Shown here one piece after another: positions 2,139-44,172 of a DNA stretch of 64,000 bases. Both the position numbers and the translations under genes were made by a program. Source of the stretch: an uncultured Methanosarcinales archaeon (GTDB lineage: Archaea; Nanobdellota; Nanobdellia; Woesearchaeales; GW2011-AR9); NCBI GenBank assembly GCA_964373955.1, contig CAYJXA010000001.1, positions 108,301 through 172,300 on the forward strand, written 5' to 3'. How positions within the stretch are numbered: the stretch's first letter is position 1; every line of letters starts with the position of its first letter. The notes beneath the pieces were generated by a model. It searched no databases. It was given only the letters and a program-made list of their open reading frames with translations, and was not told where the DNA came from.

Positions 2139-2783
2139 TTAGGGTCGTACCCATGCTACTTGGTAATATGTAACATCATTCTCATCATCGACAATCGCTA
2201 ACAATAATCTCTTTTTCGTGCTATGTGCAACCCGGTTTTTAGCGCTGAATTCATGCCAGGTAAGCGTGCTACCCTCATGAACTGGGAAGACAATCCATTT
2301 TGCATGGTCTTCCCCAGGTTTTACTCCCCGATCATACACCCTGAAGTCAGCTCCAAACTTGAGCGCAGTTTTAATTATATACCCCCTATTTCGCATATCT
2401 TTAAAAACACAATAGCGGATCCAGAAATTAGGCTCAATTTTCTTCGTCTTCTTGAGATACTCTTCAGGAGCAAGCTCTTTCCCAGCATCATTTCTAACCA
2501 GAAGCTTACCCTTTTCCATTAAATAGTATGCTTCCAGCAAGGATAACTCTACTTTCCCGTTCTCAGCTAAAGTACCATAACGAGATTGGTTATAGAGTTC
2601 CCTGGCGTCATCAGAAGATTCGGTGAGGACTTTTTCCCGGCCATGCACTGCTTGAATAACCACTTTTGGTTTAGATTGCTTTTCTGGTTCTGGTTCAGAG
2701 ATGGCCACTTTCTTCTTTGCATTTAATTCCAGATCTTCAAAAGCATTCTCTTCTTCGGACTTACTTTTGGTTATTTTAGGCAT
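2139..2783 (-). CDS. endA: tRNA-splicing endonuclease (tRNA-intron endonuclease catalytic subunit)
   Basis: C-terminal catalytic domain motifs (YLKKT..FWIRY..VFKDMRNRGY..KFGADFRVY...HAKW.VFPV..HSTKKRLL) typical of archaeal EndA. Start chosen at the inner Met (MPKITKSK). Confidence 0.75.
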   Translation of the reverse strand: MPKITKSKSEEENAFEDLELNAKKKVAISEPEPEKQSKPKVVIQAVHGREKVLTESSDDARELYNQSRYGTLAENGKVELSLLEAYYLMEKGKLLVRNDAGKELAPEEYLKKTKKIEPNFWIRYCVFKDMRNRGYIIKTALKFGADFRVYDRGVKPGEDHAKWIVFPVHEGSTLTWHEFSAKNRVAHSTKKRLLLAIVDDENDVTYYQVAWVRP

Positions 2784-2940
2784 AAGAAAATAGTTTAAGG
2801 GGATGTTTTTAAATGTTTGCAAAAATCCTCACTGATTTTTGAAACCCCAAAAAGATCTATTTTTTGTATGGTTTCTAAAAGGTATTTTCTCTACGATGGA
2901 ACTATTGGTCATATTTTGTCTCATTAGAGGTGTTCTTAAT

Positions 2941-6889: not shown

Positions 6890-9800
6890 TTAACATCCCC
6901 ACTCCGCTGGAACGCGCCAGGTTGTCAAGTTTGTAGTAGTATTATAACCCAAATTTGTAGCGTTCGCAGTTTTATTCACGCAGTTTCCAAGATTAGCATT
7001 ACACTGCCACAACACAGTTACGTTCCCTGGAATTCCAATTTCCAGTTTCTTCGGTCTGAAAGCGTTAATTAATTCCTGACACTTGGTATTTCCCAAGCCA
7101 ACAAAAGTCCCATTAGTGGTCGAATTAATTCCGATGTCACCTGTTCCAGGAGTAAAGTTTTGAGCACCGGTAGAAACTTTACCAGTAATGCTTGCATTAA
7201 CTAAAACCACTTTCCACTTGCTGCTATTCGAAGCGGTAGGATTTTCTATGACCAGATCGAAGCCTTTAGTCTGGCTGTAATTCAAGTTAACACCTGCGCT
7301 GCTATTCCCCGTAACATTATTTGTCGTCCCACCAGGTAACCTAAAAGTAAAGGTAATATTTCCCAGCGGATCAGTTGCTACCGCTCCCGAAGGGGGCGTG
7401 AAAGGGAACGTAAAAGTACTGGTACAAGTTTTACAGGTAGTTAACGTTCCTTTCGTCGTAAAATTGGAACAAGCGCTCACAGCACAATTACTACTGATAT
7501 CGCACACCGTTGTTTTGTAGTAATATACTGTTGCATTGTTCAATGTAGAGCCAACTTTATCTGGATTAAAATCAAAGTTATCAATAGAAGCATCGTGCCA
7601 GAGCCGATAATCTTGAAGCCCAGTATCAATAAGACCACTATCTCTTATAGTTTTATTTAATACCTTACAGGTGCTGTCGTTATTGTAAAAAGAGAGGGTT
7701 CCATTTGCCGGTTCATTAGTATCATAACTGATGAACGCTGAATCAATGAATGGATCCACCTGTGACCAGGTTATTTTTGGTGCTGTCTTATCATTCGCAT
7801 CAGCTTGTAAGACTCCGCCACAGAAATAGGAATCATAGCTGCAGCCAGCATCATCACAATCTGTTAGTCCGTCAGCATCGTTATCCACACTATCCTTACA
7901 CTGGAACCCAGCTTCATTGGGCACGAATCCAAACTTGAGGAAGCTGAAACAGTCCGGATCATTACTTGCGGTTATTCCATCCCCATCATTGTCTCCTCCA
8001 GTGTTAGAACAATCCTCAAACTTAAAGTCAAAAGAGCCGGGAGTATAGAAGTATGGTCCGGCAACATCCACCACAAAGCTATCGTTAGTGGTAATATTAC
8101 TTACAGTAGCATAGACGCGCATACTCTTGCTCTTATTGTAAAGAGACTTAAACTTGCTGAGCTCTACTTTGTCTATCCCGGCCATTCCTCCCCCAATCAA
8201 AGAACACATTTTTGCCCGATCCGAGGTAACCGGTATGGGAACTGCTCCCCAGCTGCCATTGAAACACTGGAAAGATGTTTTTATTTCTGCTAAGCTAGAG
8301 GTATAATTACCCTGATACTTAAATGAAAACTCAAACCCAGTTAAAGAACTATTATCCCGGGCAGCACAATTATTGGTCGCATTTCCATCGGTATCAAGAT
8401 ACCAAAGAAAGGTGTGATCCAAACTACCTGATCCGACACCGTTAGTTTTCAAAGGAATACTATTGCAAATTCCACTTCCAGTGAAATCCTGAATTACTGA
8501 TCCCAGCACTAAACGATCAAAGTCATCACGCAACCCTAACTGGCCTAAGTCATAATTATCACTTATTCCAGGTTGGTTGCCATCATCACCTAAGAATGTT
8601 GGTTCTATATTTCCCATGAACGTAACAAAGCCACCTTCTCCTTTGGGATCACAGAATCCAGAAACATTTTGGTTTTCTACGTTACTGGTTACATTATTAT
8701 TAAACCGACTATCTGTAAACCAGGTACAACTTGCATTCAAAGATCCCTCACATTTACTTTTATTCCCATCAGCACTAAAGCAATTTCCTCCAAAGGATTT
8801 AGGTTCACATAAGCCCGTAAGCTGTTCACATAACCCATTTGTTCCCGTCAGACAGGTAGCATTCGACCTCGTGAAACAAACAGGTTCACATTGTCCCAAA
8901 GAGTTATAAGTAGTACTCCAAGCACAGACTTGGGTAGATATGCCTCCAATAGTCACATTTGCTTCGCATGCTGCCTGGGAACTTCTTCGAGTAGCGTTGC
9001 CAAAACACTGTGAAAAGATAAGCGGCTCACACCAGCCCCCTCCACCAAAACCGCCGCCGAAACCTCCCCCCGTATTCCATCCGCAGCCCCTCGTTGTTTC
9101 GCACGCAGTTTGATTTTGGTTAGAGAAGCAATTATCTTCGGCAGTTGCATTTACTTCACAAGTACCGCCTGCTATAGAAATATAAGTACAGTCGGCAGTA
9201 TTGGAACAGCCCGTCTGATCAGTATCAAATTGCCAGCATTGTGCTCCCGGAAAGTCACAATGACCACCACTGGCTCCTCCAAAAGTACTTTCAAAATCAT
9301 CTTTCAGCCAGGCGCAGCCGTTAGAAGTACAGGTGGAATTACTGGTATAGCTGGGGCAGTTGCCAAATTTATCGTTTAAATCGTCCCCCCCGCAGAATTT
9401 GTCTGTAGCACAGTCTGCATCCGCACAGTCCGTTTTAGCGTCATTATCATTATCCTGTCCGTCAAAACAAACTTCCCCGGTAAAACCTACCGGTTCGCAA
9501 TAATAATTTACACTATCCCAGCTGCAAGATCCATTTCCCCCTTTTCCAGTGTTAATGCAGTCACTAGAGGAATAACAGCTGAAACAATCATTCCCACAGC
9601 GTTTCTCATTCTTGCCAAAACAATATCCCGCTCCGTTGGCAGCGCTAGTATCCGCTGCCCAAACACAGCCAGCAGTACTGTTCTCACACTTTGCCTGTGG
9701 TGCAGTTAAGAACTCACAAGCACCACATACATCATCACAATCTTTTCCTCCACCAATCACAAAAGCGTCTTTCGGAGTACACCACCCATACCCGTTAAAA

Positions 9801-18606: not shown

Positions 18607-19086
18607 ATGAAAGGGGCCAATTATTTTATCTTCACTATCTTTATTATCATACTTGCTTTAGTCAGTGGTTGTACAAAGCAGGAGATAACACCCACTACAA
18701 CCAGTTCTCCCATTATAATATCAAAAGTTTATACTAATGGATTTACTTTAGAGGAATTGGGATTAACCATAGCTTTAGATGGGGCTGTTGTCTATTATGA
18801 AAAAGCTACTGATGAGTATGGTGTTAATTTTGAACAGAATAGAAAAGAAGGAAAGATAAATAATACCCACTTAATCCAATTGATCCAATTATTTGATAGC
18901 AATTTCTTTGGCTTAGAGGGGTATTATGGTTGCGAAAATGCTCCTACAGACGCTGGTACCAATACTTTTAATTTTAAGGATGAAACAAGAGAAAAATCTG
19001 TGGGGATTTATGGTGGTTGCGAACTTCCACCTGAATTGAAATCAATAGATGAAGAATTGAATAAAATTAAGGACAGGTTAAAATAA
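18607..19086 (+). CDS. Putative lipoprotein (lipobox LVSGC)
   Basis: Signal peptide ending in the L-V-S-G-C lipobox, then a Thr/Ser-rich linker. Confidence 0.5.
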   Translation: MKGANYFIFTIFIIILALVSGCTKQEITPTTTSSPIIISKVYTNGFTLEELGLTIALDGAVVYYEKATDEYGVNFEQNRKEGKINNTHLIQLIQLFDSNFFGLEGYYGCENAPTDAGTNTFNFKDETREKSVGIYGGCELPPELKSIDEELNKIKDRLK

Positions 19087-19127
19087 TTACTTTCTTTCTG
19101 TCTCATAGAATATATAAAATCAAAAAA

Positions 19128-19319
19128 TGGCCCCACCGGGACTATCACCAAAGTACACTATTCTGCTCATGTTGCGGGATTTCCAGAGGAATATCCCGCT
19201 TGAATACGACTCGCATAGTGTAACTTGCTTTGAACCCAGGACATCTGCCTGACTTCTAGTGCTTTGTTAAGAACGCACCCGTATAAGAGCAGCGCTCCAC
19301 CAGGCTGAGCTATGGGGCC
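19128..19319 (-). tRNA. tRNA-Ile(UAU) candidate with two introns (37/38, about 31 nt; 59/60 in the T-loop, about 87 nt)
   Basis: Minus strand reads ggcccca-ta-gctc-agcctggtg-gagc-g-ctgct-cttata|intron|a-ggcag-atgtc-ctggg-ttcaaa|intron|t-cccgg-tggggcc-a. Perfect 7-bp acceptor. Classic archaeal D-arm GCUCAGCCUGG. T-tract downstream. ttttaaag box about 25 nt upstream. Confidence 0.55.
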
Positions 19320-19510
19320 ATTCCCGCAAGATACCCCTTTCTTTAAAAGACTTTCTTCTCCCAGAATAAGAAAGGAAGAACAATTTCTTCCGTTTCCTTT
19401 ATAAATAAACCCTTATTTTGCTTTTCCCCACCAGGGAATTACTACAAACTTATATAAACCCAAAAAAGAAGTCTAGGGCTAGAAATTAAATTGACCTTTC
19501 GTGAGAAAAG

Positions 19511-20371
19511 ATGAACATAAACCAAATTAAGAAGTTAATGGAACGGAAAAAGACTTCCCACAAGGGAGAAAATGGGTATGCTTTAGTGATCGGGGGATCG
19601 GAAGAATATGCGGGAGCGGTTACTTTAGCAGGCTTGGCAGCGCTGCGAGCCGGCTGTGATGCCGTTACCGTTGCTGCGCCAGAAAAAGTGGCCTGGACTA
19701 TTAACCGCTACAGCCCTGACTTAATGACATATAAAATAAAAAGCGGCGCGTTTAGCATTAAAAATGCGAAAGAAATGGTCAAGTATGCTGAGAAATTTGA
19801 TGCCGTCCTTATCGGAAATGGCATTACCCGAAAAGCAGACAAGTTTTGCCAATACTTCATCAAGAAATCGCAAAAGCCCAAAGTCATTGATGCAGATGCC
19901 TTGAAGGGGCTTTCTTTTAAGGAGTTTAATAATGCCATCCTTACCCCCCATGAAACCGAATTGGAAACAATGCTCATCAACAGCAACAAGGAATTCCTGC
20001 TTCCCAAACTAAGAGAATCGAATGCCAAAGAGAAAGCCGAGATCCTTCAGGGGAATTTGCGCTACTTTTTGCAGAATAATAATGTGCTCTTAGTTAAAGG
20101 AGCTACGGATATCATCATTTCCCGTAATAAAATCGCCTACAATAGAACTGGAAACCAAGGTATGACCAAAGCGGGTACGGGGGATGTGCTGGCGGGAATT
20201 ATTGTTGGTTTCCTGGCGAAAACGAAAGATCCTTTCAAGAGTGCAGTGGCAGGATCATACATTAATGGCTATATTGGGGATATGCTTTTGAAGAAAAAGA
20301 AAGGATATACATTTATCGCTTCTGACATCTTGGATGATTTGGGGAAGATAAGTAAAGTTCCTAAGAAATAA
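19511..20371 (+). CDS. nnrD: ADP-dependent NAD(P)H-hydrate dehydratase (YjeF C-terminal domain family)
   Basis: HKGENGYALVIGGSEEYAGA..LA..AALRAGCD.VTVA and TGNQGMTKAGTGDVLAGII motifs. Confidence 0.8.
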   Translation: MNINQIKKLMERKKTSHKGENGYALVIGGSEEYAGAVTLAGLAALRAGCDAVTVAAPEKVAWTINRYSPDLMTYKIKSGAFSIKNAKEMVKYAEKFDAVLIGNGITRKADKFCQYFIKKSQKPKVIDADALKGLSFKEFNNAILTPHETELETMLINSNKEFLLPKLRESNAKEKAEILQGNLRYFLQNNNVLLVKGATDIIISRNKIAYNRTGNQGMTKAGTGDVLAGIIVGFLAKTKDPFKSAVAGSYINGYIGDMLLKKKKGYTFIASDILDDLGKISKVPKK

Positions 20372-22877: not shown

Positions 22878-22923
22878 TCAAAAATCAAAAAGTTTAAGTA
22901 CAAATATCTCTTTCTAATCCTTG

Positions 22924-23724
22924 ATGAAAGAAACCATTCTCAAATATGCTCTTAAAAATGCACTAGAGTTCCAGGGCAAAGTAAATCAAAATGTGGTGCT
23001 GGGATTAGTTTTAAGAGATCATCCAGAGCTTAAAAAAGATGTTCCCAAGGTTCGGCAAGAAATTGAAAAAGTCATTCTGGAGATTGGAAAACTAACCCTT
23101 GAAGAAAAAAAAGAGAAATTAGAACACCTTGCCCCGAATTTGCTTCAATCACCACCCGAAGAAACCGCCGAAGGACCATTAAAGCCGCTTCCCAAGGCAG
23201 AGAAAGGAGCGGTAAAAGTAAGAATCGCTCCTTCACCGAGCGGAGCGCTTCATATAGGGCATGCGTATGGAGCTTCTTTAAATTACGAATATAGTAAGAT
23301 GTATCAGGGAAAACTCATCCTGCGGATTGAAGATACCAATCCCGAAAATATCTATGAGCCCGCATATAAATTAATCGAGGAAGATCTGCGATGGTTAACG
23401 GAGAATAACGTGGCGGAAGTGCAGGTGCAATCTTCTCGCTTAGGGATTTATTACGATTATGCAGAAAAATTAATTCGCGACGGAAAAGCATATGTGTGCA
23501 CCTGCAATGCGGAAGTTTGGCGGGAGATGAAAAACCATGGTAAAGCCTGCTCTTGTCGAGAACTCCCCACTAAAGAACAGCACGTACGCTATGCGAAAAT
23601 GTTTAGCGGCTATGCAGAAGGGGAGGCGGTACTACGATTAAAAACAAATATCCAAGACAAGACTCCGGCGAGGCGGGATATAGGCATTATGCGTATTGTT
23701 GATCATGTTAATCCAAAGACATGA
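22924..23724 (+). CDS. gltX: Glutamyl-tRNA synthetase, N-terminal part (HIGH region), terminated by an in-frame TGA
   Basis: VRIAPSPSGALHIGHAYGASLNYEYS...LRIEDTNPEN class I Glu/Gln-RS signature. Ends ..RIVDHVNPKT then TGA. Confidence 0.7.
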   Translation: MKETILKYALKNALEFQGKVNQNVVLGLVLRDHPELKKDVPKVRQEIEKVILEIGKLTLEEKKEKLEHLAPNLLQSPPEETAEGPLKPLPKAEKGAVKVRIAPSPSGALHIGHAYGASLNYEYSKMYQGKLILRIEDTNPENIYEPAYKLIEEDLRWLTENNVAEVQVQSSRLGIYYDYAEKLIRDGKAYVCTCNAEVWREMKNHGKACSCRELPTKEQHVRYAKMFSGYAEGEAVLRLKTNIQDKTPARRDIGIMRIVDHVNPKT

Positions 23725-23748
23725 AAGCAACAGAAACTTTGGCCTTTT

Positions 23749-24624
23749 ATGGTTTTTTCAGTTGCAGTAGATGACCATGAACTGGGGGTTACTCACGTCT
23801 TAAATGGGAAAGATCAAGCAGATAATGCCGTGAAGGAGCGCTTGATTATGGAATTTTTGGGGTGGAAAGCACCGGAGTATAAACATTGGGGCATGATTAA
23901 TTTTGAAGGGTTTATCTTAAGCACTACTCAAACCAGGAAAGCCATCGAGCAAGGAGAATACAAAGGATGGGATGATATTCGCCTACCCTTTCTTCCTGCA
24001 TTGCGTAAAAGGGGTTACCAGCCGGGAGCTTTCCGCCGTTACGCTGTAGAAATCGGACTCAGCCTAAATGACAAGACCGTAAGTAAAGAAGAATTTTGGA
24101 AAAATATTAATGCCTTCAACAAAGAGATTGTAGATCCCCTTGCAAATAGATATTTCTTTATTGACGATCCCGTAGGAATAGTCATCGAAGGTTGCCAGAA
24201 AAAAAGTGTTGAGCTGGAATTGCATCCTGATTTTCCTTCGCGGGGAAAAAGAACTTTTCTTACTGATGAGAAATTTTACATTAGCATGCACGATTTTAAA
24301 AGACTGGGAGAAGGGTATATTCACCGTTTGATGGATTGTTGCAATTTTGAATTGCGGAAAAATAAATTATATTACCTTTCACAGAGTTATGAAGAATACA
24401 AAAATGCAACGAGGAAAGGACATATCATTCATTGGTTGCCTCACGCCGCTAAGAATGTTCAGATGGAAGTGCTTCAAGAGAATGGGTTAACTACCGCCGG
24501 ATTGGGTGAGGAGCGGTTAGCACAGTTGAAGGAAGGAGAAATAGTCCAGTTGGAACGGCGTTATTTTGCGCGGGTAGTGAGGAAAGAGAAAGAGAAGGTT
24601 ATCTTTTGGTATCTGCACAAGTAA
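23749..24624 (+). CDS. gltX: Glutamyl-tRNA synthetase, C-terminal part (same reading frame as 22924..23724)
   Basis: Begins MVFSVAVDDHELGVTHVLNGKDQ. This is the conserved AVDDH..GITHV block that follows the HPRTG-DKY.VWP segment, so the TGA sits exactly where the conserved Gly is expected. Confidence 0.7.
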   Translation: MVFSVAVDDHELGVTHVLNGKDQADNAVKERLIMEFLGWKAPEYKHWGMINFEGFILSTTQTRKAIEQGEYKGWDDIRLPFLPALRKRGYQPGAFRRYAVEIGLSLNDKTVSKEEFWKNINAFNKEIVDPLANRYFFIDDPVGIVIEGCQKKSVELELHPDFPSRGKRTFLTDEKFYISMHDFKRLGEGYIHRLMDCCNFELRKNKLYYLSQSYEEYKNATRKGHIIHWLPHAAKNVQMEVLQENGLTTAGLGEERLAQLKEGEIVQLERRYFARVVRKEKEKVIFWYLHK

Positions 24625-28053: not shown

Positions 28054-31000
28054 CTATTGCTTTTCTTTTCCAAGCTCTTTATTCAATTTCTCTAATTCTC
28101 CCTCAACCTGCAACAATCTTTTTTTCAGAGAAACTGACTCGCTGAGGGAAGACTTTGGACGAGAAATTCTTTCTGCTTCTTTCGCTTTCCGAGCACTATC
28201 AGCAGGCCCCAATCCGGCGATAGTTTCTTCGATTTGTCCTAGTTTTCGATTTAAGAATCTCTTTCGCTCTAGCGAGTCAACTCGGGAGGAAATATTCTCA
28301 TGGGAAGCAGGAGGTAAAAACTCTGGGGGTAGCTGTCCCGCTCTGAGCATACCGAAAGGGGGTTTTGGCGGTACCACTGTACCCGCTTCTGGCTGGTACT
28401 CCAATGATTTAAGATTTTTGTTAATCTGGTCATACTCTTCCTGTAGTTCTACCTGCTGCTTCTTTCCCCAAGCTGAAGGAAGAGTGACGCTAATGCTTGG
28501 TGCGGTCTTCTCAACTTCTTTCTTCCGTTCTCTGGTTTGGATAAAAGCTTTATATTTTCGATATTCTTCCCGCATCAAAATGGAAGTCAGGAAGAGCAAA
28601 GGTAAAAAGATAAGGAGAGCAATTAATCCTACCCAATACGAACTATACTGCAACGCCCTCCCTTTAAACTGTTGGAAGAATGCGCCCCCAACTAGAGCTC
28701 TTGCTTTAGGAGGCACAACTTCAGGGGCAACTACTACCGGAAGAGGTGCTGCCGCCATCACTTCGATCTGACGATGACTGGTAATGTGATAATCTCCATA
28801 CGTTAATTCAATAGTAAGAGTATACTGCCCTGGCTCAAGATCAGAAGGCACAAAGAGAGTTGCATTTTCTATTTCCTCCCTGCCGCTTTGAATAAAAATA
28901 ACATCTTTCCCCTCGGTTTTTATTACCCCCTCTTTCTCCAGGGTGAAATCCAAAACGACGTCTCCGGAAATATTGCTTACCGCTTTCATTAAATATCTCA
29001 CCATGATATTTTCCCCAGCCGGTACCGGAGAGGTAACATCAAGTATCCTTAGGTCAAAGAGTTTTACACAGGAGTGTTGAATGCACACTTCATCAGTACT
29101 ACATTGATCATCAGTGATACATTCATACTCTATGCATTGGTTATTGAAACAATATTGATCTGCTTCACAATCAGCATCGGTGGTGCATTCTACTTTTGGT
29201 TTACTTGCTCCACCTCCGCCGCCTCCACCCCCCGTTACCGCTTCGCTTTCCGTTGTAATCGTTTCACTGGCAGTAAAACTGCTGAAACTGGAAGTATTAA
29301 AAGTGAGTGTTCCGCTGCTGTAACTGATAAGAGTACAACCTGAGCCAAGACAATCAGATCCGCTTATCTCGCTAGCGCTTGATCTAAAGAGTGGATCCTT
29401 AGTCACCCCCGTAACTGAACTAAAAGTAAGCCCTTGAAGAATGATTGTTCCTGTCCGATTTAGGCCTACGAACGCAGAAGTATTAAAAGCGAAAAAATTA
29501 TCTGCAATGATGAGGTTCTTTCCATGCCCCAGCTCAAAGGGAAGACTGATATTAGAGATATTTGTCCATTGCACTGAACCAAAACTATTGTTATATTTCA
29601 TAGTTTGGGCGCAGGCAGATCCGGTAAAGAGAAGAGTAGTATTCTCAAACTGGTTATCCACAAAAGTGTTATTGCAAGAGTTCTCAACTGCTACTCCGGA
29701 AGTTATATTTCTCGTTTCCCGCACTTGTAAAGAGAGAGGATAGGTATATCCGCTACTAACATTAAAACTGGAGTTAAACAGGGCAGTAAGATTATCAATA
29801 TAATTAGAGGAATTGCCATTAGCTATTAAAGCATTAGTGATGTAAAAATCACAAATAGATCCGGGGAGATTAGTGACAACATTACTACAATTAGTTAATC
29901 CGTTAGTATCAGCAGAATCTTTCCGAAGAAAGATGGTCTGGTTAGAAGGAGTTGATCCTGAACTAGAATTAAGAAAACCAAGAATAAGATTAAAATTGTT
30001 ACTGCCATCCGCCATAATGATGGTGGTGTTATCTGCAGAAACATTAACGGAGCCGCCGCCGCCGGTGTACCTTAGGCTGCCATTATAAATCACCCCATTA
30101 TACGTCAAAGGCGAATAGGAGCTTCTAAAAGATATGATAGAAGATATTCGACTGCTATCATTGATAATATTACTCTCTAGATAGGAATGGTTAGAAAGAT
30201 TAAGAAGTACCGCCTGAACCCCCTCTTCATAAATAAGATTCCCCGTGAGATTTGCTTGGCTGCTGTTGAAAATTTGTATAGCCCAAGCAACATTAGAGTG
30301 TAAAACAGTATCAGTAATAATGCTCTTGCTGGTGTTATCAACAGAAATTCCCTGGGTATTCGTTGTAAAGGTGCTATTGCTTACTGTTACATTATTAGTA
30401 TTAGATTCAAAAACCCCCAGAGAAAAATTACTGATGAATATATTTTTAACAGTGACATTATTTACATCACTTATATTTACTCCTAACCCTACGCCATTGC
30501 CGATAATCGCATACCCTGCACCATCAATGATAATATTACTTCTCAGAACGGTAAAACAGGTTCCAGAGGAGGTAATATTTCTCGTTAAAGTAACGCTGGA
30601 GTTAACAGAGCCACACAATGTGTCAAGAGCCGCAAAACTGCTAAAAGAGGTAGTATTAAAGAGAAGTACTTGGCTAACATTATCAAAACTAAAAATAGTG
30701 CAGGAAGTGCCATTACAATTGGTTCCGCTGGTTCTTATTTCATTGGCATTAGTATTAAAAGTCTCCAATCTTCGGATATTGACCACTTCACTAAAACCAA
30801 GCCCCCTAAGAGTAATATTTGCGCTGGAGTTAATTCTTCCAGAGGTGAAAGCGGAAGTATTTACCGCAAGGGTATTATTTCCAATAAAGATATTCCTACC
30901 TACACCGATACCATTAGAATTATTAACATCTAAAGTTAAATCCCGAAGGAAACTACCCGTACCATTATCAATCCATTCGATCCCTCCAAAAGAGTTATTG

Positions 31001-34000
31001 TAAATAAGATAGTTACTGACATTAGCAGCACTATCGTCAGAAATTTCCACAGACCCATTAGAACTGATATTAATGTTGACGAAATAATTATTTCTTATAC
31101 AGTCTCCACTAGTGCAATCTCCCAGCGAAAAAGAGTTAAGGAAGAGAGCGCTAGACGTGCCAAAGTGAGTAATATTTTCATCTGTAAAAGTGTTGTTCTC
31201 AACTACTCCCTGCCCCTGAAGATCATAGGATATGCCCAGGCTGCCCCCCCCGGAATAGAAACGATTAGAAGAAAAATTCATAGTATCCACTCCAGCTATG
31301 AGCACGGTGCTCCCAAAAGCAGCAAAATCTATCAGGGTATTAGAGAAGAAAATTCCCCCGGACACATTACGTAAAATTATTCCCCCCTGGTTACTGTTAT
31401 TAGTTCTATTCACGTAATTTCCAGTGATATTAAAGCTTTTTGATTGAAATGAAATATTAGTATTAATTGCCGTCCCCGAAGAATTTAATTCAAAGAAGTT
31501 GTTAGCGATGGTCGTATGATTAGAGTTTTGTACAAAAAGAAGATCGAGACCTGATCTGGTTCGTGTTACTAAGGTCATATTGGTAATATTAGTACCGTTC
31601 GAATTCTGAACACGAATGTTAGTAGTGAAATTATTCAGCGTGAAATTAAAAAGAGTAATATTGTTAAAACCATTAATAGTTACTCCCGTCCCCGAGCCAT
31701 TACTGTAAACGGAATGGCCAGAACCATTGATGAAGAGGTTAGAATTATTAATAATAAAACAGTCCCCGGTACTACTTAAATCATGATTTAAGGTAAAACT
31801 AGCGGTTACCCTCCCACAGAAATTACTGATGGTAAGATTTCTTGTTTCAGAAACTGCAGAAGTTCCCCCGTCACTACAGTTAATAGACCAGTGGTATTCC
31901 CCATTGAGAAGAGAAGCATTAGCAGTTATACTAGTAGCGGTTGCATTTCGGGTAGAACTATTTCGGCCATAAGGGGCTGTAACCCCCTCGCTATTGTTCA
32001 AATAAAGAGTACAGTCTAAAGTTCCCTGTTGCGCTAGATCATCCGTGACATTAAAAGCAAAACGAGGAGTACTATTAGTATTGTTCAAAGTGTTATTGGG
32101 AGGAGATAAAAGGGAGATAGTAGGAGAACTGTTATCAGCGGTGACGGCAGTGAAACTGCCAAAAGAAGTCATGTTAAAGAGAAGAACTTGAGAGGCATTA
32201 TCAAAACTCAAAATAAGACAGGATGTTCCATTACAATATTCCCCTCCAGTTTTAATTTCATCGATATTCGTGCTAAACGTTTCTAACCGCTGGATGTTAG
32301 CTACGGAATTAAATCCTAAACCGACTAGGGTAAGATTGGCGCTAGAATTAATTCTTCCTGACGTAAAAGCAGACGTGTTAATGGTAACGCTATTATTACG
32401 AATAAAGAAACTCCTCTCTAATCCTATCCCCAAAGCATTACCAACCTGAAGATCTAAATCATCCAGGAAACTATTGTTAGTCCATTGAATTTTACCAAAG
32501 GAGTTGTTATATACAAAAGAATTGAGGTTAGAGTTTCCTGATTGATCATCTATTTCAGAAGTACTAGCGCTGGAGATATTATTATTTCGAAGAGTATTGT
32601 TGGCGGCACTAGCTTGGATAATAATACTTCTAACGGTATCAGTAGTGAAGTTATTCTCCACAAGCGTGTTTCGAGAGGCGTTCTGTCCAAGATTAACCAA
32701 CCCTCTTATAATATTAGACGAGATGTTGTTATCGCTGGAAGATTCACCGGTAGTAGTAATAAAGTTGAAATCAAGAGCAATACCGTCTCCCAAGCTGGTG
32801 ATATTATTAAAGTCTACAATACTAAAACTAGAGTTGACAAAATAAAGACTGCTGCTGTTAGTGGTAACAATTCTATTAAAACTAATGTTGTGGGACAGCG
32901 CATGTTGGGCTAGGATTCCCTCGGCTGCATTTCCAGTCGTATTAACATTATTAAAAATGATGGTGTTGTTTCTTTCACCCGGATTGATTAATATCCCTAC
33001 CGCTCCTAATCCCGAAGTGATAACCGTATTAGATTGCAGACGATTGGAAGAAACAGCAATGTCCAACCCATAAGAATTATTTCCTGAAGTCACCACTTTA
33101 TTTGAATCGATAACCAGGAGGGTTGAGGTGAGTGATCTTATTCCAGGTGACGAGTTAGTAAAAGTAGTGACATTATTTCTGCTGATGTTAGACCGGTTCG
33201 CGCTGGAGAAACTAATTCCTATACTGCCTGTGCTTGCATTGCCAGAAATAATGGTGTTATTCCAGATGGTGTGATTGACGGAGTCTCTTACATCTATTAC
33301 GGTGGAAAAGTTAACCGCGATTAGGTTTCGAACGGTGAGATTATTGAATCCAATTGCTAAAACTGCCGAGCCAGATCCATCTCCCGTTATGGTAAATCCC
33401 GCACCCTCAATCAGGATGTTAGAAGCGTTGACGATAAAGCACGTGCCATCAGTACTGATATTATTGTTAATAGTGACATCATTATTAATAGTGCCGCATT
33501 GAGTTACATTGCTTCCCGAAGTAGCGGAATAATTACTAAATGAAGCAACTGTCGCAGTTAAGATTCCCGTAGTAGAATCATAGGAAGCGATAGTGCAGAG
33601 AGTATTATCGTTATCACACCTCACCCCATCTTTCAATAAGAATGGCTGGGTAGAGTAAGTTAAATTTTTTATGTCTATACGGGCGGATCTATTAAGGTTA
33701 AGCGACTGAGCTGTGTCGAGAATACCCGTGAGATTTTGCTGTAAAAAGATAGTTTGTCCAAGCACTAAACTCATATTGGTAGTGAGATTTTCCCTGGTCC
33801 AGTTTATCATCCCAAAAGAATTATTGTAAATGAGCGTGTTGTTAGTCTCTAAGCCACTCAGATCATAAATACTAAAATTTACTACGGCATTGATGGTATT
33901 ATTCCGGAAAGTATTGTTATAGGTGCTAACATCACTTATCTCTATAGTGGCCAAGGTGGAATTGCCAGTAATATTGTTAGCGATAAAAGAGTTATTACTA

Positions 34001-37000
34001 TTATTGATGAGCAGAAGACCATAACTATTCCAGCCAATGATAGTATTAGATGCGATTATCCCCCCGCGGGTGTTCAACATATACAATCCTGGTGCTATTG
34101 TCCCGGACGTGTTCATATAATTCTGGGAGATGTTAGTCCTATTTGCAAAATTTCTAAGTTCTATTGACGCGCTAGCATTGGCAATAGTACTGAGAGTATT
34201 ATTAAAGAGTACACCGTCAAGAGCGCTGTCCCACCAGATTGCGTCTTTGTTAGAGGAAGTATCCGCCTGTTCAACCATCAGGCAGTTTTTAATGGTGACG
34301 TTATGAAAGCCGGTGTTATTAACTCCCTTTCCCTCTGCACTGGAAGAACCATACCTAATAACATTTCCAGTACAATTAATGAAAATGTTGGATGCGTTTA
34401 TAATGAAACAAGTGTTCTCCGCGCTTACATTCTGGTTGAGAGTAAAATTTCTATTGACATACCCACAACTAGCAATGTCCGCAGCAAAACTGCTAAACGA
34501 AGTAGTATTGAAACGCAAGATGCCGGTGTTTACATTATAATTAAAGACAAGGCAAGAATTGCTGCTGATACAATCAGTTCCTGCTCTGATCACGGTAGTA
34601 CTATTCTCATCATACTCTTCCAAACGACGGATACTTTCAACCCTGCTGACATTAAGGGCATAGAGGGTAAGATTCGCGCTGGAGTTTATTCTCCCCGATA
34701 CAAATGCGGAAGTATTAACGGTGATAATATTCTGCCCAATGAAAATATTTCTACCTAATCCAATCCCCAGACTATTATTAGCATTCAAGGTTAAATCCTG
34801 CTGAAAGCTCGTATTCGTCCATCGGATCTCCCCAAAGGTGTTGTTATAAATGAGATAATTTACCAAACCTGCTGATGACGAATCAGAAATCTCAGTGTTA
34901 TTTGACGTAAAGTTATTGTTTAAGAAGGTATTATTTTCAGAAGTGCTTAAAATTGACAACACCGTCGATTTACTCGAATTAAGGGAATTGTAATCGAAGA
35001 GGTTATAGCTGCCATTAACTAGGTTAATAGCAAGGTTAGGGCCAGAGCCAGTCGTATTGATGATGTTAGAACTAACATTATTATAGTTAGAAGTCCTTAA
35101 ACCAAGACCAGTAGAACCATTCCCGATAGAAAACAGAGTATTAGAAAGTAGGATATTGCCCTCTGAAAAGTTGAGCAGGATTCCATGAGAATTGGTAGCA
35201 TTAATAGTGAGGGTGCTGGTGTTAATCACAGAACTATTTGTGTCTTGAAAAACGATACCTGGTCTTTCTCCATCCCCCGCTGCGGTTTCGATAGTGACAT
35301 TAGAGATGGTAATATTAAACCCAGCAGTGATATGAATCCCTTCTGAAAAATTGTTGAGAGCAATATTCCTAATAGTAATATTCCTAAAGCCTGAACTGTT
35401 GATTCCAAACCCGCTTCCGGTTCCCGTGAGTACATACCCGGCACCATTAATCAGGATATTGGAAGCATTAATAGTTAAACAAGTTCCCGTAAAGGTTGTA
35501 TTTTGAGTTAAAGTGAGATTCCCATTGACCGTTCCACAAATGGAAGACCCGTTTCCCAAGGCAGCAAAACTGCTAAAAGAAGTAGTATTAAACCGCAAAG
35601 TACTATCTGCTCCCATACTAAACACGGTACAACTACTCCCCAGGCAATCCACCCCATTGTTAGAAATATTGGTAGAATTCGTATCATAAGCAGGAACTTT
35701 CAGAATAGAATTTATCGCCGTAAAGTTCAAACCAAAGACGGTTATGTTAGCTGTTCCGTTAATCCAGCTGCTCCCGAACGTAGAAGTATTTAACGCAATA
35801 ACATTGCTCCCTATAAAAAGATTCCTTGCTAAACCAATACCCTCACTGCTTGCAACAGAAAGTGTTAGGTTCCGAGTGAAGCTCCTTGTTCCATTATCAA
35901 TCCATTTTATCTCACCAAAAGAGTTATTATAGATGAGATAATTACTGACATTGGTAGCACTATTATCCTGTATCTCCTGGGACCCATTTGTGCTTATATT
36001 CACATTAATGAAATAATTATTTCTCACGCAATCCCCACCGGAACATTCTCCTTGCGAGAAAGAATTAAGAAAAACGGCGCTTTGAGTTCCAAAACTAGTA
36101 ATGTTGTCATTGGTGAAAGTGTTATTTTCCACAACGCCCATCCCTTGAAATCCAAAGGCGGTTGACAAGCTCCCTCCCCCAACGTATACTTTGTTAGAAG
36201 AAAAATTACTGTTAGTAACTCCCATTAAAAGAATCGCCGTTCCACCACTTCCAAAATCGAAGAGGGTATTGGAATTGAAATTCAAGCCAGTGATGTTTCC
36301 CAGATTGAATCCCCCCTGATTAGAATTATTTGTTCTATTAACGTAATTATTAGTAATGTTTAAATCGGTATTTAGAAAAAGAATGTTAGTATTAAGGGTC
36401 ATGGAAGAGGTATTCTGCTCAAAATAATTATTAACAATAGTGGTATGGTTTACATTTTGTAAGCTTATCAAAGCTTGCGTATTAGTTATGCGAGATAGAA
36501 AAGTAACGTTAGTGATATTAGTACCATTAGAATCCTGGACATAAATTTGTTGCGAGAAATTGTAAATAGTGAGATTAAAGATGGTAATATTATTGAAACC
36601 AGTGATATTAATTCCCACGCCAGAACCATTGCTAATAAGGGAATAACCAGAACCATTGAGAAATATGTCTGAACCATTAATGATAAAGCAGTGCGTATCC
36701 GCAACAATATTCTGAGTAAGAGTATAAACTCCGCGAGCAGTAAGATTAGCACAAGTTGATTGCAGGACCGTAGGGATGATGTATCCTGTGGGTGAAATGA
36801 TATTTGAAGGGTTATTCTCTGTTACTATTTCAACTGAAGCCCCAGTAATACTGTTTCCTGTTCCAAGGAAGGAATCCAGTGTAGTCACAATTATTTCTTT
36901 TTCGGAAAAAAAATGTCCCGGAATAGTATCAAAAACCAGAGTGGTAGTTGGCTCACTGACCAATAAGACAAAAATAAAAGAAATCATTCCTGCAAGCAAG

Positions 37001-37062
37001 AAATATTCTTTAGTCTCGTTCAGTGAATTCCTTTTCCAGTTTTTTCTCTCTCCTGATTTCAT
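28054..37062 (-). CDS. Giant (3002 aa) surface protein: N-terminal signal/anchor, multiple N-glycosylation-rich parallel beta-helix repeat modules, Cys-rich knot, C-terminal TM helix and cytoplasmic coiled-coil tail
   Basis: Uninterrupted 9 kb ORF. Asn/Thr/Ser-rich with hundreds of N-x-S/T sequons. The recurring TSFSSFAA motif marks about 6 modules. GGGGGGGG linker, CTTDADCEADQYCFNNQCIEYEC knot, then a TM (WVGLIALLIFLPLLFLTSILM) and a K/E-rich tail. Confidence 0.8.
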   Translation of the reverse strand: MKSGERKNWKRNSLNETKEYFLLAGMISFIFVLLVSEPTTTLVFDTIPGHFFSEKEIIVTTLDSFLGTGNSITGASVEIVTENNPSNIISPTGYIIPTVLQSTCANLTARGVYTLTQNIVADTHCFIINGSDIFLNGSGYSLISNGSGVGINITGFNNITIFNLTIYNFSQQIYVQDSNGTNITNVTFLSRITNTQALISLQNVNHTTIVNNYFEQNTSSMTLNTNILFLNTDLNITNNYVNRTNNSNQGGFNLGNITGLNFNSNTLFDFGSGGTAILLMGVTNSNFSSNKVYVGGGSLSTAFGFQGMGVVENNTFTNDNITSFGTQSAVFLNSFSQGECSGGDCVRNNYFINVNISTNGSQEIQDNSATNVSNYLIYNNSFGEIKWIDNGTRSFTRNLTLSVASSEGIGLARNLFIGSNVIALNTSTFGSSWINGTANITVFGLNFTAINSILKVPAYDTNSTNISNNGVDCLGSSCTVFSMGADSTLRFNTTSFSSFAALGNGSSICGTVNGNLTLTQNTTFTGTCLTINASNILINGAGYVLTGTGSGFGINSSGFRNITIRNIALNNFSEGIHITAGFNITISNVTIETAAGDGERPGIVFQDTNSSVINTSTLTINATNSHGILLNFSEGNILLSNTLFSIGNGSTGLGLRTSNYNNVSSNIINTTGSGPNLAINLVNGSYNLFDYNSLNSSKSTVLSILSTSENNTFLNNNFTSNNTEISDSSSAGLVNYLIYNNTFGEIRWTNTSFQQDLTLNANNSLGIGLGRNIFIGQNIITVNTSAFVSGRINSSANLTLYALNVSRVESIRRLEEYDENSTTVIRAGTDCISSNSCLVFNYNVNTGILRFNTTSFSSFAADIASCGYVNRNFTLNQNVSAENTCFIINASNIFINCTGNVIRYGSSSAEGKGVNNTGFHNVTIKNCLMVEQADTSSNKDAIWWDSALDGVLFNNTLSTIANASASIELRNFANRTNISQNYMNTSGTIAPGLYMLNTRGGIIASNTIIGWNSYGLLLINNSNNSFIANNITGNSTLATIEISDVSTYNNTFRNNTINAVVNFSIYDLSGLETNNTLIYNNSFGMINWTRENLTTNMSLVLGQTIFLQQNLTGILDTAQSLNLNRSARIDIKNLTYSTQPFLLKDGVRCDNDNTLCTIASYDSTTGILTATVASFSNYSATSGSNVTQCGTINNDVTINNNISTDGTCFIVNASNILIEGAGFTITGDGSGSAVLAIGFNNLTVRNLIAVNFSTVIDVRDSVNHTIWNNTIISGNASTGSIGISFSSANRSNISRNNVTTFTNSSPGIRSLTSTLLVIDSNKVVTSGNNSYGLDIAVSSNRLQSNTVITSGLGAVGILINPGERNNTIIFNNVNTTGNAAEGILAQHALSHNISFNRIVTTNSSSLYFVNSSFSIVDFNNITSLGDGIALDFNFITTTGESSSDNNISSNIIRGLVNLGQNASRNTLVENNFTTDTVRSIIIQASAANNTLRNNNISSASTSEIDDQSGNSNLNSFVYNNSFGKIQWTNNSFLDDLDLQVGNALGIGLERSFFIRNNSVTINTSAFTSGRINSSANLTLVGLGFNSVANIQRLETFSTNIDEIKTGGEYCNGTSCLILSFDNASQVLLFNMTSFGSFTAVTADNSSPTISLLSPPNNTLNNTNSTPRFAFNVTDDLAQQGTLDCTLYLNNSEGVTAPYGRNSSTRNATATSITANASLLNGEYHWSINCSDGGTSAVSETRNLTISNFCGRVTASFTLNHDLSSTGDCFIINNSNLFINGSGHSVYSNGSGTGVTINGFNNITLFNFTLNNFTTNIRVQNSNGTNITNMTLVTRTRSGLDLLFVQNSNHTTIANNFFELNSSGTAINTNISFQSKSFNITGNYVNRTNNSNQGGIILRNVSGGIFFSNTLIDFAAFGSTVLIAGVDTMNFSSNRFYSGGGSLGISYDLQGQGVVENNTFTDENITHFGTSSALFLNSFSLGDCTSGDCIRNNYFVNINISSNGSVEISDDSAANVSNYLIYNNSFGGIEWIDNGTGSFLRDLTLDVNNSNGIGVGRNIFIGNNTLAVNTSAFTSGRINSSANITLRGLGFSEVVNIRRLETFNTNANEIRTSGTNCNGTSCTIFSFDNVSQVLLFNTTSFSSFAALDTLCGSVNSSVTLTRNITSSGTCFTVLRSNIIIDGAGYAIIGNGVGLGVNISDVNNVTVKNIFISNFSLGVFESNTNNVTVSNSTFTTNTQGISVDNTSKSIITDTVLHSNVAWAIQIFNSSQANLTGNLIYEEGVQAVLLNLSNHSYLESNIINDSSRISSIISFRSSYSPLTYNGVIYNGSLRYTGGGGSVNVSADNTTIIMADGSNNFNLILGFLNSSSGSTPSNQTIFLRKDSADTNGLTNCSNVVTNLPGSICDFYITNALIANGNSSNYIDNLTALFNSSFNVSSGYTYPLSLQVRETRNITSGVAVENSCNNTFVDNQFENTTLLFTGSACAQTMKYNNSFGSVQWTNISNISLPFELGHGKNLIIADNFFAFNTSAFVGLNRTGTIILQGLTFSSVTGVTKDPLFRSSASEISGSDCLGSGCTLISYSSGTLTFNTSSFSSFTASETITTESEAVTGGGGGGGGASKPKVECTTDADCEADQYCFNNQCIEYECITDDQCSTDEVCIQHSCVKLFDLRILDVTSPVPAGENIMVRYLMKAVSNISGDVVLDFTLEKEGVIKTEGKDVIFIQSGREEIENATLFVPSDLEPGQYTLTIELTYGDYHITSHRQIEVMAAAPLPVVVAPEVVPPKARALVGGAFFQQFKGRALQYSSYWVGLIALLIFLPLLFLTSILMREEYRKYKAFIQTRERKKEVEKTAPSISVTLPSAWGKKQQVELQEEYDQINKNLKSLEYQPEAGTVVPPKPPFGMLRAGQLPPEFLPPASHENISSRVDSLERKRFLNRKLGQIEETIAGLGPADSARKAKEAERISRPKSSLSESVSLKKRLLQVEGELEKLNKELGKEKQ
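30250..36780 (-). repeat. Internal large segmental repeats within the giant gene (for example about 0.9 kb at 35.9-36.8 kb, about 70% identical at protein level to 30.25-31.2 kb)
   Basis: Protein segments FIINGSDIFLNGSGYSLISNGSGVGINITGFNNITIFNLT... and FIINNSNLFINGSGHSVYSNGSGTGVTINGFNNITLFNFT... align over about 300 aa. Confidence 0.5.
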
Positions 37063-44060: not shown

Positions 44061-44172
44061 GCCCCTGTGGCTTAGTAGCTATAGCGGCTGCCTCGTAGAA
44101 TCGAATGGTGATAAGCGTTACTCTTCGATTTTTGACAGCAGCAGATCGCGAGTGCAATTCTCGCCAGGGGCT
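44061..44172 (+). tRNA. tRNA-Thr(CGU) with one canonical 39-nt intron at 37/38
   Basis: gcccctg-tg-gctt-agtagcta-tagc-g-gctgc-ctcgta|intron|a-gcagc-agatc-gcgag-tgcaatt-ctcgc-caggggc-t. Perfect 7-bp acceptor. The intron carries an aatcgaa/ttcgatt stem. T-tract follows. Atypical G at T-loop position 55 and no GG in the D-loop. Confidence 0.5.

Follow-up and report, generated by a model that had tools for sequence, protein, structure and literature searches.

The minus strand at positions 19128-19319 of the window, by which we mean the whole 64,000-nucleotide stretch of DNA analyzed here, holds a genuine tRNA-Ile(UAU) gene that is interrupted by two introns, the first in the anticodon loop at the canonical site 37/38 and the second in the T loop at position 59/60. 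The minus-strand sequence quoted for this locus in an earlier note matches the interval exactly, and the note's reading of it as a two-intron tRNA with the anticodon UAU is borne out by ARAGORN, which calls tRNA-Ile(tat) on the exons spliced in silico. Judged by its sequence features and their conservation, the locus is very probably a functional, independently transcribed tRNA-Ile(UAU) gene of a DPANN archaeon of the Woesearchaeota/Nanoarchaeia type. Its parts are the following.

19128-19319, minus strand: the whole tRNA-Ile(UAU) gene with its three exons and two introns; it begins with G1 and ends with the discriminator A73, CCA not encoded (from the sequence and in-silico splicing)
19282-19319, minus strand: exon 1 of 38 nt, comprising the 5' strands of the acceptor and anticodon stems, the D arm and positions 32-37 of the anticodon loop (CUUAUA)
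19283-19285, minus strand: anticodon UAU (34-36), between U33 and A37
19251-19281, minus strand: intron 1, 31 nt, canonical position 37/38, relaxed BHB
19229-19250, minus strand: exon 2 of 22 nt, running from A38 through the 3' strand of the anticodon stem, the variable loop and the 5' strand of the T stem to positions 54-59 of the T loop (UUCAAA)
19142-19228, minus strand: intron 2, 87 nt, position 59/60, the only cut that restores UUCAAAU together with BHB geometry
19128-19141, minus strand: exon 3 of 14 nt, with U60, the 3' strands of the T stem and the acceptor stem, and the discriminator A73

The spliced product has 74 nt, and all of its stems are paired: 7/7 in the acceptor stem, 4/4 in the D stem, and 5/5 in both the anticodon stem and the T stem, each of the latter two with one G-U pair. 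The anticodon loop reads CUUAUAA and the T loop UUCAAAU, and it is indeed the removal of the T-loop insert at 59/60 that restores the latter, as had been claimed. U8, A14, G18-G19, U33, U54-U55-C56, A58 and C61 are all present, both by direct reading and in the family alignment. That the tRNA would be charged with isoleucine is suggested indirectly by the discriminator A73, by A37 and A38, and by its place in a conserved DPANN family that published work annotates as Ile (PMC3239211). It sits in a 424-nt gap between flanking ORFs that end at 19086 and start at 19511.

Detection of the interrupted gene

On the raw 64-kb window ARAGORN finds no tRNA at all, and Rfam reports no tRNA (RF00005) in the window at its gathering thresholds. 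When the threshold is relaxed to E ≤ 10, Rfam still has no match of any kind at the locus 19128-19319, and inspection of the introns by eye found no C or D boxes; the sole tRNA that Rfam then detects in the window is a different one, with a single intron, at 44061-44172. The silence of both programs on the unspliced Ile(UAU) gene is expected, because the gene is interrupted twice.

As a looser structural tRNA scan returned mostly noise, tightened criteria were used instead: the acceptor stem had to have 7 bp and be rich in G+C, U8 had to be present, and a T stem of 5 bp with a UUCRA loop was required, in which an interruption was allowed. This strict scan of the whole window retrieves two loci only, the Ile(UAU) gene and a gene for tRNA-Gly(GCC). 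Together with the more than 130 homologous genes found in public genomes and metagenomes, it places the locus far beyond what chance would produce.

The value of these observations lies mainly in annotation. The Ile(UAU) gene, the neighboring tRNA-Gly and a third tRNA in the window all go unseen by ARAGORN and by Rfam at its curated thresholds, and with automatic annotation the genome would seem to be without a decoder for AUA (19% of Ile codons) and for some Gly codons. A gap of this kind was predicted for DPANN archaea by Kaneta et al. (PMC5829648). These authors linked EndA variants in DPANN to heavy disruption of tRNA genes, in a set that included one Woesearchaeota and one Pacearchaeota genome, and took incomplete tRNA sets to point to disrupted genes that had escaped detection (PMC5829648).

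Intron junctions and BHB motifs

Both BHB motifs are of the relaxed class and not strict 3-4-3 motifs, because each central helix has only three of its four pairs. At intron 1 these are C32-G, U33-A and U34-A, and the fourth position is an A35.G mismatch. The hairpin h' (GGUGC/GCACU) begins with a G.A and closes a 12-nt loop, GUUCUUAACAAA, and the two mismatches A35.G and G(+2).A(-7) border the 5' bulge. At intron 2 the T stem serves as the outer helix, the 3' bulge is AG↓U60 and the 5' bulge A58 A59↓G (arrows mark the cuts), and the central helix consists of U55-A, C56-G and A57-U with a U54.U mismatch adjoining the 3' bulge. The intron itself forms a single long hairpin with its final 7 nt unpaired and a fold z-score of -3.46.

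The outer helices, that is the anticodon stem and the T stem, are intact at both predicted splice sites. Note that the minimum-free-energy fold finds the acceptor stem, the T stem and the long intron hairpin, but does not predict the short central helices. A naive single-sequence scan for hBHBh' did not rank the true sites first either. As chance combinations score equally high, naive scoring was replaced by comparative position statistics; for the placement of the junctions, the single sequence is weak evidence and the comparison is decisive.

For the T loop, eight possible cut positions were compared in 19 distinct two-intron genes among the matches listed. With the cut at 59/60 the central helix has on average 3.68 of its 4 pairs, as opposed to at most 2.3 with the other seven cuts, and the T stem, in its role of outer helix, has 4.0 out of 4, where the best other cut reaches 2.2. 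A canonical loop of the UUCRAAU type is restored by the 59/60 cut in 100% of these listed genes and by any other cut in at most 37%. For the anticodon loop, in 93 distinct 37/38 introns among the matches listed the four pairs of the central helix form at frequencies of 1.0, 0.90, 0.98 and 0.78 and the first pair of h' at 0.87, and pairing is much lower in slid controls on the same set. The central helix is complete in 63 of these 93 introns and has 3/4 pairs in 29; the A35.G mismatch occurs in 14 of them and is common to the closest relatives of the window gene. Both relaxed features, A35.G and U54.U, are seen again in related genes such as those at the metagenome loci L133 and L124. The comparative data fix both predicted junctions, 37/38 and 59/60, where the earlier note had them.

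It is hardly credible, then, that the introns lie elsewhere, with an anticodon other than UAU or a T-arm insert at a position other than 59/60. Several alternative cut pairs from the naive BHB scan do have similar or higher scores, and one of these motifs lies inside the 87-nt intron. The alternative cut pairs, however, wreck the cloverleaf, and of the eight T-loop cuts 59/60 alone both yields UUCAAAU and makes the T stem the outer helix, which holds for the window as well as for 19/19 listed genes. At intron 1 the anticodon stem and the 3-nt bulge that ends in A38 leave a single place for the 3' splice site, which excludes a different anticodon with BHB geometry, and the slid controls collapse. 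When the 31-nt intron is left in the sequence, ARAGORN still returns Ile(tat) and independently places the intron in the anticodon loop; the anticodon thus remains UAU on re-scanning, a point on which the earlier note had held its reading to be exposed. The BHB-like motif inside the 87-nt intron, which bounds 50 nt (gene positions 110-159), is at chance level, as 9/60 shuffles reach its score. A nested intron at this place is not supported, on the same count, and the global alignment has no clean insertion there, though the 37-nt remainder resembles the 40-nt intron of L122.

Homologues and conservation

Homologues were collected in a scan of species-representative genomes for CUUAUA preceded by a D arm of the archaeal type, which gave at least 120 loci, and in a metagenome scan with a lineage-specific 20-mer, which gave 15 further contigs. 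Among the matches listed, 129 tRNA-Ile(UAU) genes were parsed: 76 with the 37/38 intron only, 33 free of introns (a few of these from CPR bacterial records) and 20 with both a 37/38 and a T-loop intron. Two loci from Aenigmatarchaeota, L071 and L108, parsed badly, probably have a different intron layout, and were left out of the statistics. The CUUAUAA loop of the window gene is found in more than 130 homologues. In an RNAalifold consensus of 30 spliced homologues, with the window gene as the first sequence, the cloverleaf comprises 21 pairs, 15 of which show compensatory double changes, and the window sequence pairs at 21/21 of these positions.

The combination of a 37/38 and a 59/60 intron seen in this Woesearchaeota-like tRNA-Ile(UAU) gene occurs in at least 19 others. 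Exon 1 is identical in the metagenome loci L122, L123 and L133, and a homologous intron 1 is found in L122, L124, L133, L135, L128 and L131, with changes from G-U to G-C in h'. The 59/60 intron of the orthologues is fixed in position but ranges from 13 to ~100 nt, and its interior is not alignable; the 87-nt intron of the window is among the longest T-loop introns parsed, with that of L132 about equal. In L129, a syntenic orthologue, the T-loop intron is absent, which implies that the insert is removable and dispensable for the mature tRNA, as is expected of an intron. The position 59/60 is therefore stable in evolution while the sequence and length of the intron that occupies it turn over freely, and the homologues indicate that relaxed BHB motifs are tolerated in the lineage of the window.

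The genomic context is retained as well. The Ile(UAU) gene is paired with a divergent gene for an NAD(P)H-hydrate dehydratase (19511-20371; Pfam Carb_kinase), and this pairing is kept in L027, with 79% amino-acid identity, and in nine metagenome contigs, where the nucleotide identity is 69-72% and the exons of the tRNA differ little or not at all.

Putative promoter and terminator

Two putative transcription signals flank the gene.

19341-19359, minus strand: BRE/TATA-like promoter element AGAAGAAAGUCUUUUAAAG; its TATA-like part ends ~22 nt upstream of the mature 5' end
19116-19127, minus strand: oligo-T tract TTTTTTGATTTT, directly after A73, candidate terminator

BRE and TATA elements are the established architecture of archaeal promoters, and by analogy AGAAGAAAGUCUUUUAAAG may be taken for one. 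The motif AGAAAnCTTTTAAA lies at an equal upstream distance in the window and in eight homologues (L122, L124, L133, L135, L128, L131, L132 and L027). In the same eight homologues a T-rich tract follows within a few bases of A73, and CCA is not encoded; the tract TTTTTTGATTTT is likely to be the transcription terminator.

These signals also bear on the possibility that the locus is a decaying, non-functional tRNA pseudogene whose two inserts could not be removed and which would yield no mature tRNA. We consider this very improbable. What might speak for decay is the mismatch in the central helix of both BHB motifs, a T-loop insert whose length is among the greatest of those parsed, and the failure of standard tools to call the gene. 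Yet all four stems are intact and the universally conserved tRNA positions are all there, and the exons have stayed identical or nearly so in orthologues in which the neighboring gene has diverged to ~70% nucleotide identity. The putative promoter and terminator are conserved, and the very mismatches in question, A35.G and U54.U, recur in relatives such as L133 and L124. AUA codons, moreover, are regularly used: in the long ORFs of the window they amount to 12.3 per 1000 codons, or ~19% of the Ile codons. A functional gene is the reading that we retain.

The companion tRNA-Gly and the splicing endonuclease

The tRNA-Gly(GCC) gene close by has the same two-intron architecture, and the window also encodes a splicing endonuclease.

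17534-17723, plus strand: tRNA-Gly(GCC), exons 17534-17570, 17622-17642 and 17710-17723
17571-17621, plus strand: tRNA-Gly(GCC) intron 1, 51 nt, position 37/38
17643-17709, plus strand: tRNA-Gly(GCC) intron 2, 67 nt, position 59/60
2139-2822, minus strand: tRNA-splicing endonuclease (EndA) catalytic subunit, 227 aa, Pfam PF01974 (E = 1.5e-29) and PF02778

The T-loop BHB of the tRNA-Gly gene is perfect, with the central helix UUCG/CGAA and the bulges AA↓A and AG↓U, and by reading of the sequence its 37/38 central helix, UUGC/GCAA, has 4/4 pairs. The junction analysis of both genes confirms that the T-loop intron of Ile(UAU) sits at 59/60 as it does in the neighboring tRNA-Gly. From this shared position a lineage-wide mode of processing had been proposed, a view that is supported by the BHB geometry across the homologues and by the presence of an EndA gene in the window.

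As evidenced by sequence comparison, the best solved relative of the window EndA is 3IEY_A (E = 7e-38), the catalytic alpha subunit of the N. equitans enzyme, and the catalytic Tyr, His and Lys of the window EndA align with solved EndA structures. It is the enzyme that would be expected to cut both BHB motifs. In enzymes of broad specificity, insertions relative to the strict alpha4 enzymes have been described, L1 and L2 near the catalytic His and L3 at the C-terminus (PMC5829648). A pairwise comparison of the window EndA with the strict-specificity enzyme of M. jannaschii (1A79) reveals an N-terminal extension only, with no insertion between Tyr and His or C-terminally; as coordinates for L3 are not given in the text of Kaneta et al., this comparison does not properly score L3. 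Elsewhere in the window, at 14241-15440, lies a gene for an Obg-like GTPase, which shares 55-63% identity with proteins encoded at MAG loci of Nanoarchaeia and Woesearchaeota. The matches of the GTPase and of EndA assign the window to a DPANN archaeon of the Woesearchaeota/Nanoarchaeia type. The G+C content of the window is ~41%.

Decoding of AUA

The genomically encoded UAU anticodon had been put forward as rare and notable. This view does not survive the genome scan, in which at least 120 species-level genomes, nearly all of DPANN archaea, carry a UAU gene. Among the matches listed, such genes come from Woese-, Pace-, Micr- and Aenigmarchaeota, Iainarchaeota/Diapherotrites, Nanoarchaeota, Parvarchaeum MAGs and a few CPR bacteria. 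The matches listed comprise more than 130 tRNA-Ile(UAU) genes, of which 20 have an intron at 59/60, and they show decoding by UAU to be the norm across DPANN, with the trait widespread in uncultivated lineages. The notion of rarity presumably originates from a survey of 167 mostly cultivated archaeal genomes, in which UAU was encoded by N. equitans and K. cryptofilum alone (PMC6000648).

A further question is whether the UAU tRNA is the primary decoder of AUA or a redundant, supplementary isoacceptor in a genome that also has a tRNA-Ile(CAU) and TiaS, the agmatidine synthetase. We regard redundancy as unlikely. What leaves room for it is that only 64 kb of the genome are visible, and nothing speaks directly in its favor. 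The window contains no tRNA(CAU), and a Pfam search of 49/53 non-overlapping ORFs of at least 110 aa found neither TiaS nor IleRS; note that both results concern the 64-kb window and are uninformative for the rest of the genome. Against redundancy stand the precedents of ARMAN-2, -4 and -5, which have tRNA-Ile(UAU) and have lost both TiaS and tRNA-Ile(CAU) (PMC3239211), and of N. equitans and K. cryptofilum, which are likewise without the two (PMC6000648). In addition, the UAU gene is near-ubiquitous across the DPANN lineages among the matches listed, which fits a primary decoder. A full-text literature search that paired TiaS with DPANN found no paper.

With respect to codon usage in the window, genome-wide recoding of UGA (in-frame TGA in GluRS) was rejected: GluRS is the only split gene, and the usage of stop codons is ordinary.

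A model for processing

The features described above can be combined into a model for the maturation of the tRNA. A precursor of ~190 nt would be transcribed from the BRE/TATA-type promoter and end at the oligo-T tract. It would fold with one BHB stacked on the anticodon stem, at 37/38, and a second stacked on the T stem, at 59/60. On either strand of a BHB, archaeal EndA cleaves at a distance of two nucleotides 3' of the central helix. The enzyme of the window, with the gene for its catalytic subunit 17 kb from the tRNA gene, would thus cut at both BHB motifs and release the 31-nt and 87-nt introns, and the three exons would then be joined by an RtcB-type ligase. CCA would be added post-transcriptionally, because none is encoded. 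The mature 74-nt tRNA, presumably with t6A37 and possibly with a modified U34, would be charged and read the isoleucine codon AUA, for which it may be the sole decoder.

Relation to known systems

Precedents have been published for ARMAN, N. equitans, K. cryptofilum and DPANN archaea more widely (PMC3239211, PMC6000648, PMC5829648), so that UAU as the anticodon, an intron at the canonical site, another at 59/60 and several introns in one gene are all of kinds already known. The current view of archaeal tRNA processing and AUA decoding is left unchanged by the results on Ile(UAU).

The closest parallel is ARMAN-2 (Candidatus Micrarchaeum acidiphilum), likewise a DPANN archaeon, whose pre-tRNA-Ile(UAU) combines a genomic UAU for AUA with a BHB intron at 37/38 (PMC3239211). 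This precursor is cleaved in vitro by the organism's own EndA (Fujishima et al. 2011, PMC3239211), and so is the ARMAN-2 pre-tRNA-Cys(GCA), which has an intron at 59/60 (PMC3239211). In pre-tRNA-Cys(GCA) and pre-tRNA-Pro(GGG) of ARMAN-2 the 59/60 intron uses the T stem as the outer helix of a BHB or relaxed BHB, just as in the window, and the same paper describes a tRNA-Pro with two T-loop introns (PMC3239211). The systems nevertheless differ in detail. The Ile precursor of ARMAN-2 has a single intron of 25 nt with a strict hBHBh' motif, whereas the window gene has a relaxed 31-nt intron and a second one of 87 nt at 59/60, an unusual length for a T-loop intron when compared to the 13 nt in ARMAN-2 tRNA-Cys. 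EndA from ARMAN-2 is a three-unit epsilon2 enzyme, while that of the window is a single catalytic-type subunit of 227 aa, nearest to N. equitans alpha.

Outside ARMAN, multi-intron tRNAs are described for Thermoproteales (Sugahara et al. 2007, 2008, as cited in PMC4090602), and according to PMC3239211 and PMC4090602, 59/60 introns and the presence of two or three introns in one tRNA gene go together with endonucleases that accept non-canonical sites. The 59/60 cases in ARMAN-2 and Thermoproteales concern other isoacceptors and lineages; those of the window are tRNA-Ile(UAU) and tRNA-Gly(GCC), each with 37/38 plus 59/60. N. equitans and K. cryptofilum resemble the window in that UAU is encoded and there is no reliance on an agmatidine-modified CAU (PMC6000648). 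For the UAU gene of K. cryptofilum, however, one intron is described (PMC6000648), and the window gene has two.

Possible role of the 37/38 intron

The retention of the 37/38 intron raises the question of whether it has a function of its own. In yeast tRNA-Ile(UAU) the intron is needed for the pseudouridylation of U34 and U36, which sharpens the discrimination between AUA and AUG (PMC4090602). The eukaryotic tRNA-Ile(UAU) is like the window gene in pairing a UAU anticodon for AUA with a retained 37/38 intron (PMC4090602), although the likeness is an analogy only. On this analogy one might speculate that the 37/38 intron of DPANN tRNA-Ile(UAU) has a task at the precursor stage, for instance in a modification of U34 and/or U36 that depends on the intron or in some other recognition of the precursor, an idea to which we give little credence. 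If true, it would let an anticodon that starts with U read AUA and not AUG, and archaea would have a counterpart of the intron-dependent pseudouridylation known from yeast. Among the matches listed, 33 of the 129 parsed genes are free of introns. The 37/38 intron is retained in 96 of these 129 listed genes and in 15/15 metagenome relatives. A T-loop-like motif, GYUCUAAnACAA, occurs in 19 of 93 distinct introns among the matches listed versus a mean of 1.8 after shuffling, a count that is inflated by shared ancestry, and the sub-family of introns with this motif spans Woese-, Micr- and Iainarchaeota.

Introns of the tRNA-Ile(UAU) gene

Among the homologous tRNA-Ile(UAU) loci compared from public genomes and metagenomes (given L numbers here), the intron at 59/60 is polymorphic even between syntenic orthologues, being missing from L129 and ranging from 13 to about 100 nt in L121–L125, L128 and L131–L135, with only the final few nucleotides (UGAAAG|U) conserved. 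The site is thus fixed, while the intron is gained or lost there and turns over rapidly. An element nested within the 87-nt intron of the window was hinted at by a motif resembling the bulge-helix-bulge (BHB) splicing signal that bounds 50 nt (gene positions 110–159; window 19161–19210, minus strand), and excision of these would leave a 37-nt hairpin with ends similar to the 40-nt intron of L122. This motif was not significant, as the same BHB score was reached in 9 of 60 shuffles.

The intron at 37/38 belongs to a sub-family of approximately 30-nt introns of tRNA-Ile(UAU) that share the loop motif GYTCTAAnACAA. In the intron hairpin, this motif comes immediately 3′ of the 5′ strand, and it resembles a T loop (GTTCnAA). 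The sub-family consists of the intron of the window

19251–19281, minus strand: 37/38 intron of tRNA-Ile(UAU)

and those of L008, L013, L031, L054, L074, L082, L086, L097 and L122–L135, a set that crosses loci labelled Woese-, Micr- and Iainarchaeota. Of 93 distinct introns, 19 have the motif, where shuffled sequences gave 1.8 on average; common ancestry inflates this enrichment. The sequence GCTCTTATCAA is present within the 37/38 intron of the tRNA-Gly of the window.

Note that DPANN-type tRNA-Ile(UAU) genes were found in three MAGs entitled 'uncultured Methanosarcinales archaeon' (L027, L031 and L086). The synteny of the NAD(P)H-hydrate dehydratase and tRNA genes seen in the window also extends to L027 (79% amino-acid identity). 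All three bins probably carry a wrong label or are chimeras.

Splicing endonuclease

The gene for a catalytic-type subunit of the tRNA-splicing endonuclease (EndA) lies at a distance of 17 kb from the tRNA genes with two introns:

2139–2822, minus strand: EndA, 227 aa

It is nearest to the alpha subunit of N. equitans (3IEY_A), and the positions of the catalytic Tyr, His and Lys align. In comparison to EndA from M. jannaschii, it lacks an obvious specificity-loop insertion and carries an N-terminal extension of some 60–80 aa, unless the start was mis-called.

Other features of the window

A third tRNA gene of the window, likewise containing an intron, scored 50.4 bits with Rfam and was not called by ARAGORN:

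44061–44172, plus strand: putative tRNA-Thr(CGU), by our own reading

Its intron of about 39–41 nt lies close to the anticodon loop. The T loop is odd (UGCAAUU, with G in the usual place of U55), and the GG typical of D loops is missing from AGUAGCUA, the D loop of this gene. The contact between both loops may be a compensated one.

The gene for an archaeal-type GluRS is interrupted by a single in-frame stop:

22921–24624, plus strand: GluRS, TGA at 23722–23724

The TGA aligns with the conserved Gly in the HPRTG motif of the GluRS structure from M. thermautotrophicus (3AII), to which the alignment is colinear on either side. It probably reflects a change from GGA to TGA or an assembly error; local read-through is a conceivable alternative, and no second gene split by an in-frame stop was found within the 64-kb window.

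Three very large ORFs probably encode large surface proteins:

28054–37062, minus strand: 3002 aa, NosD and beta-helix domains
6890–10945, minus strand: 1351 aa, no Pfam match
51969–54632, minus strand: 887 aa, Ig, PKD and cadherin-like repeats
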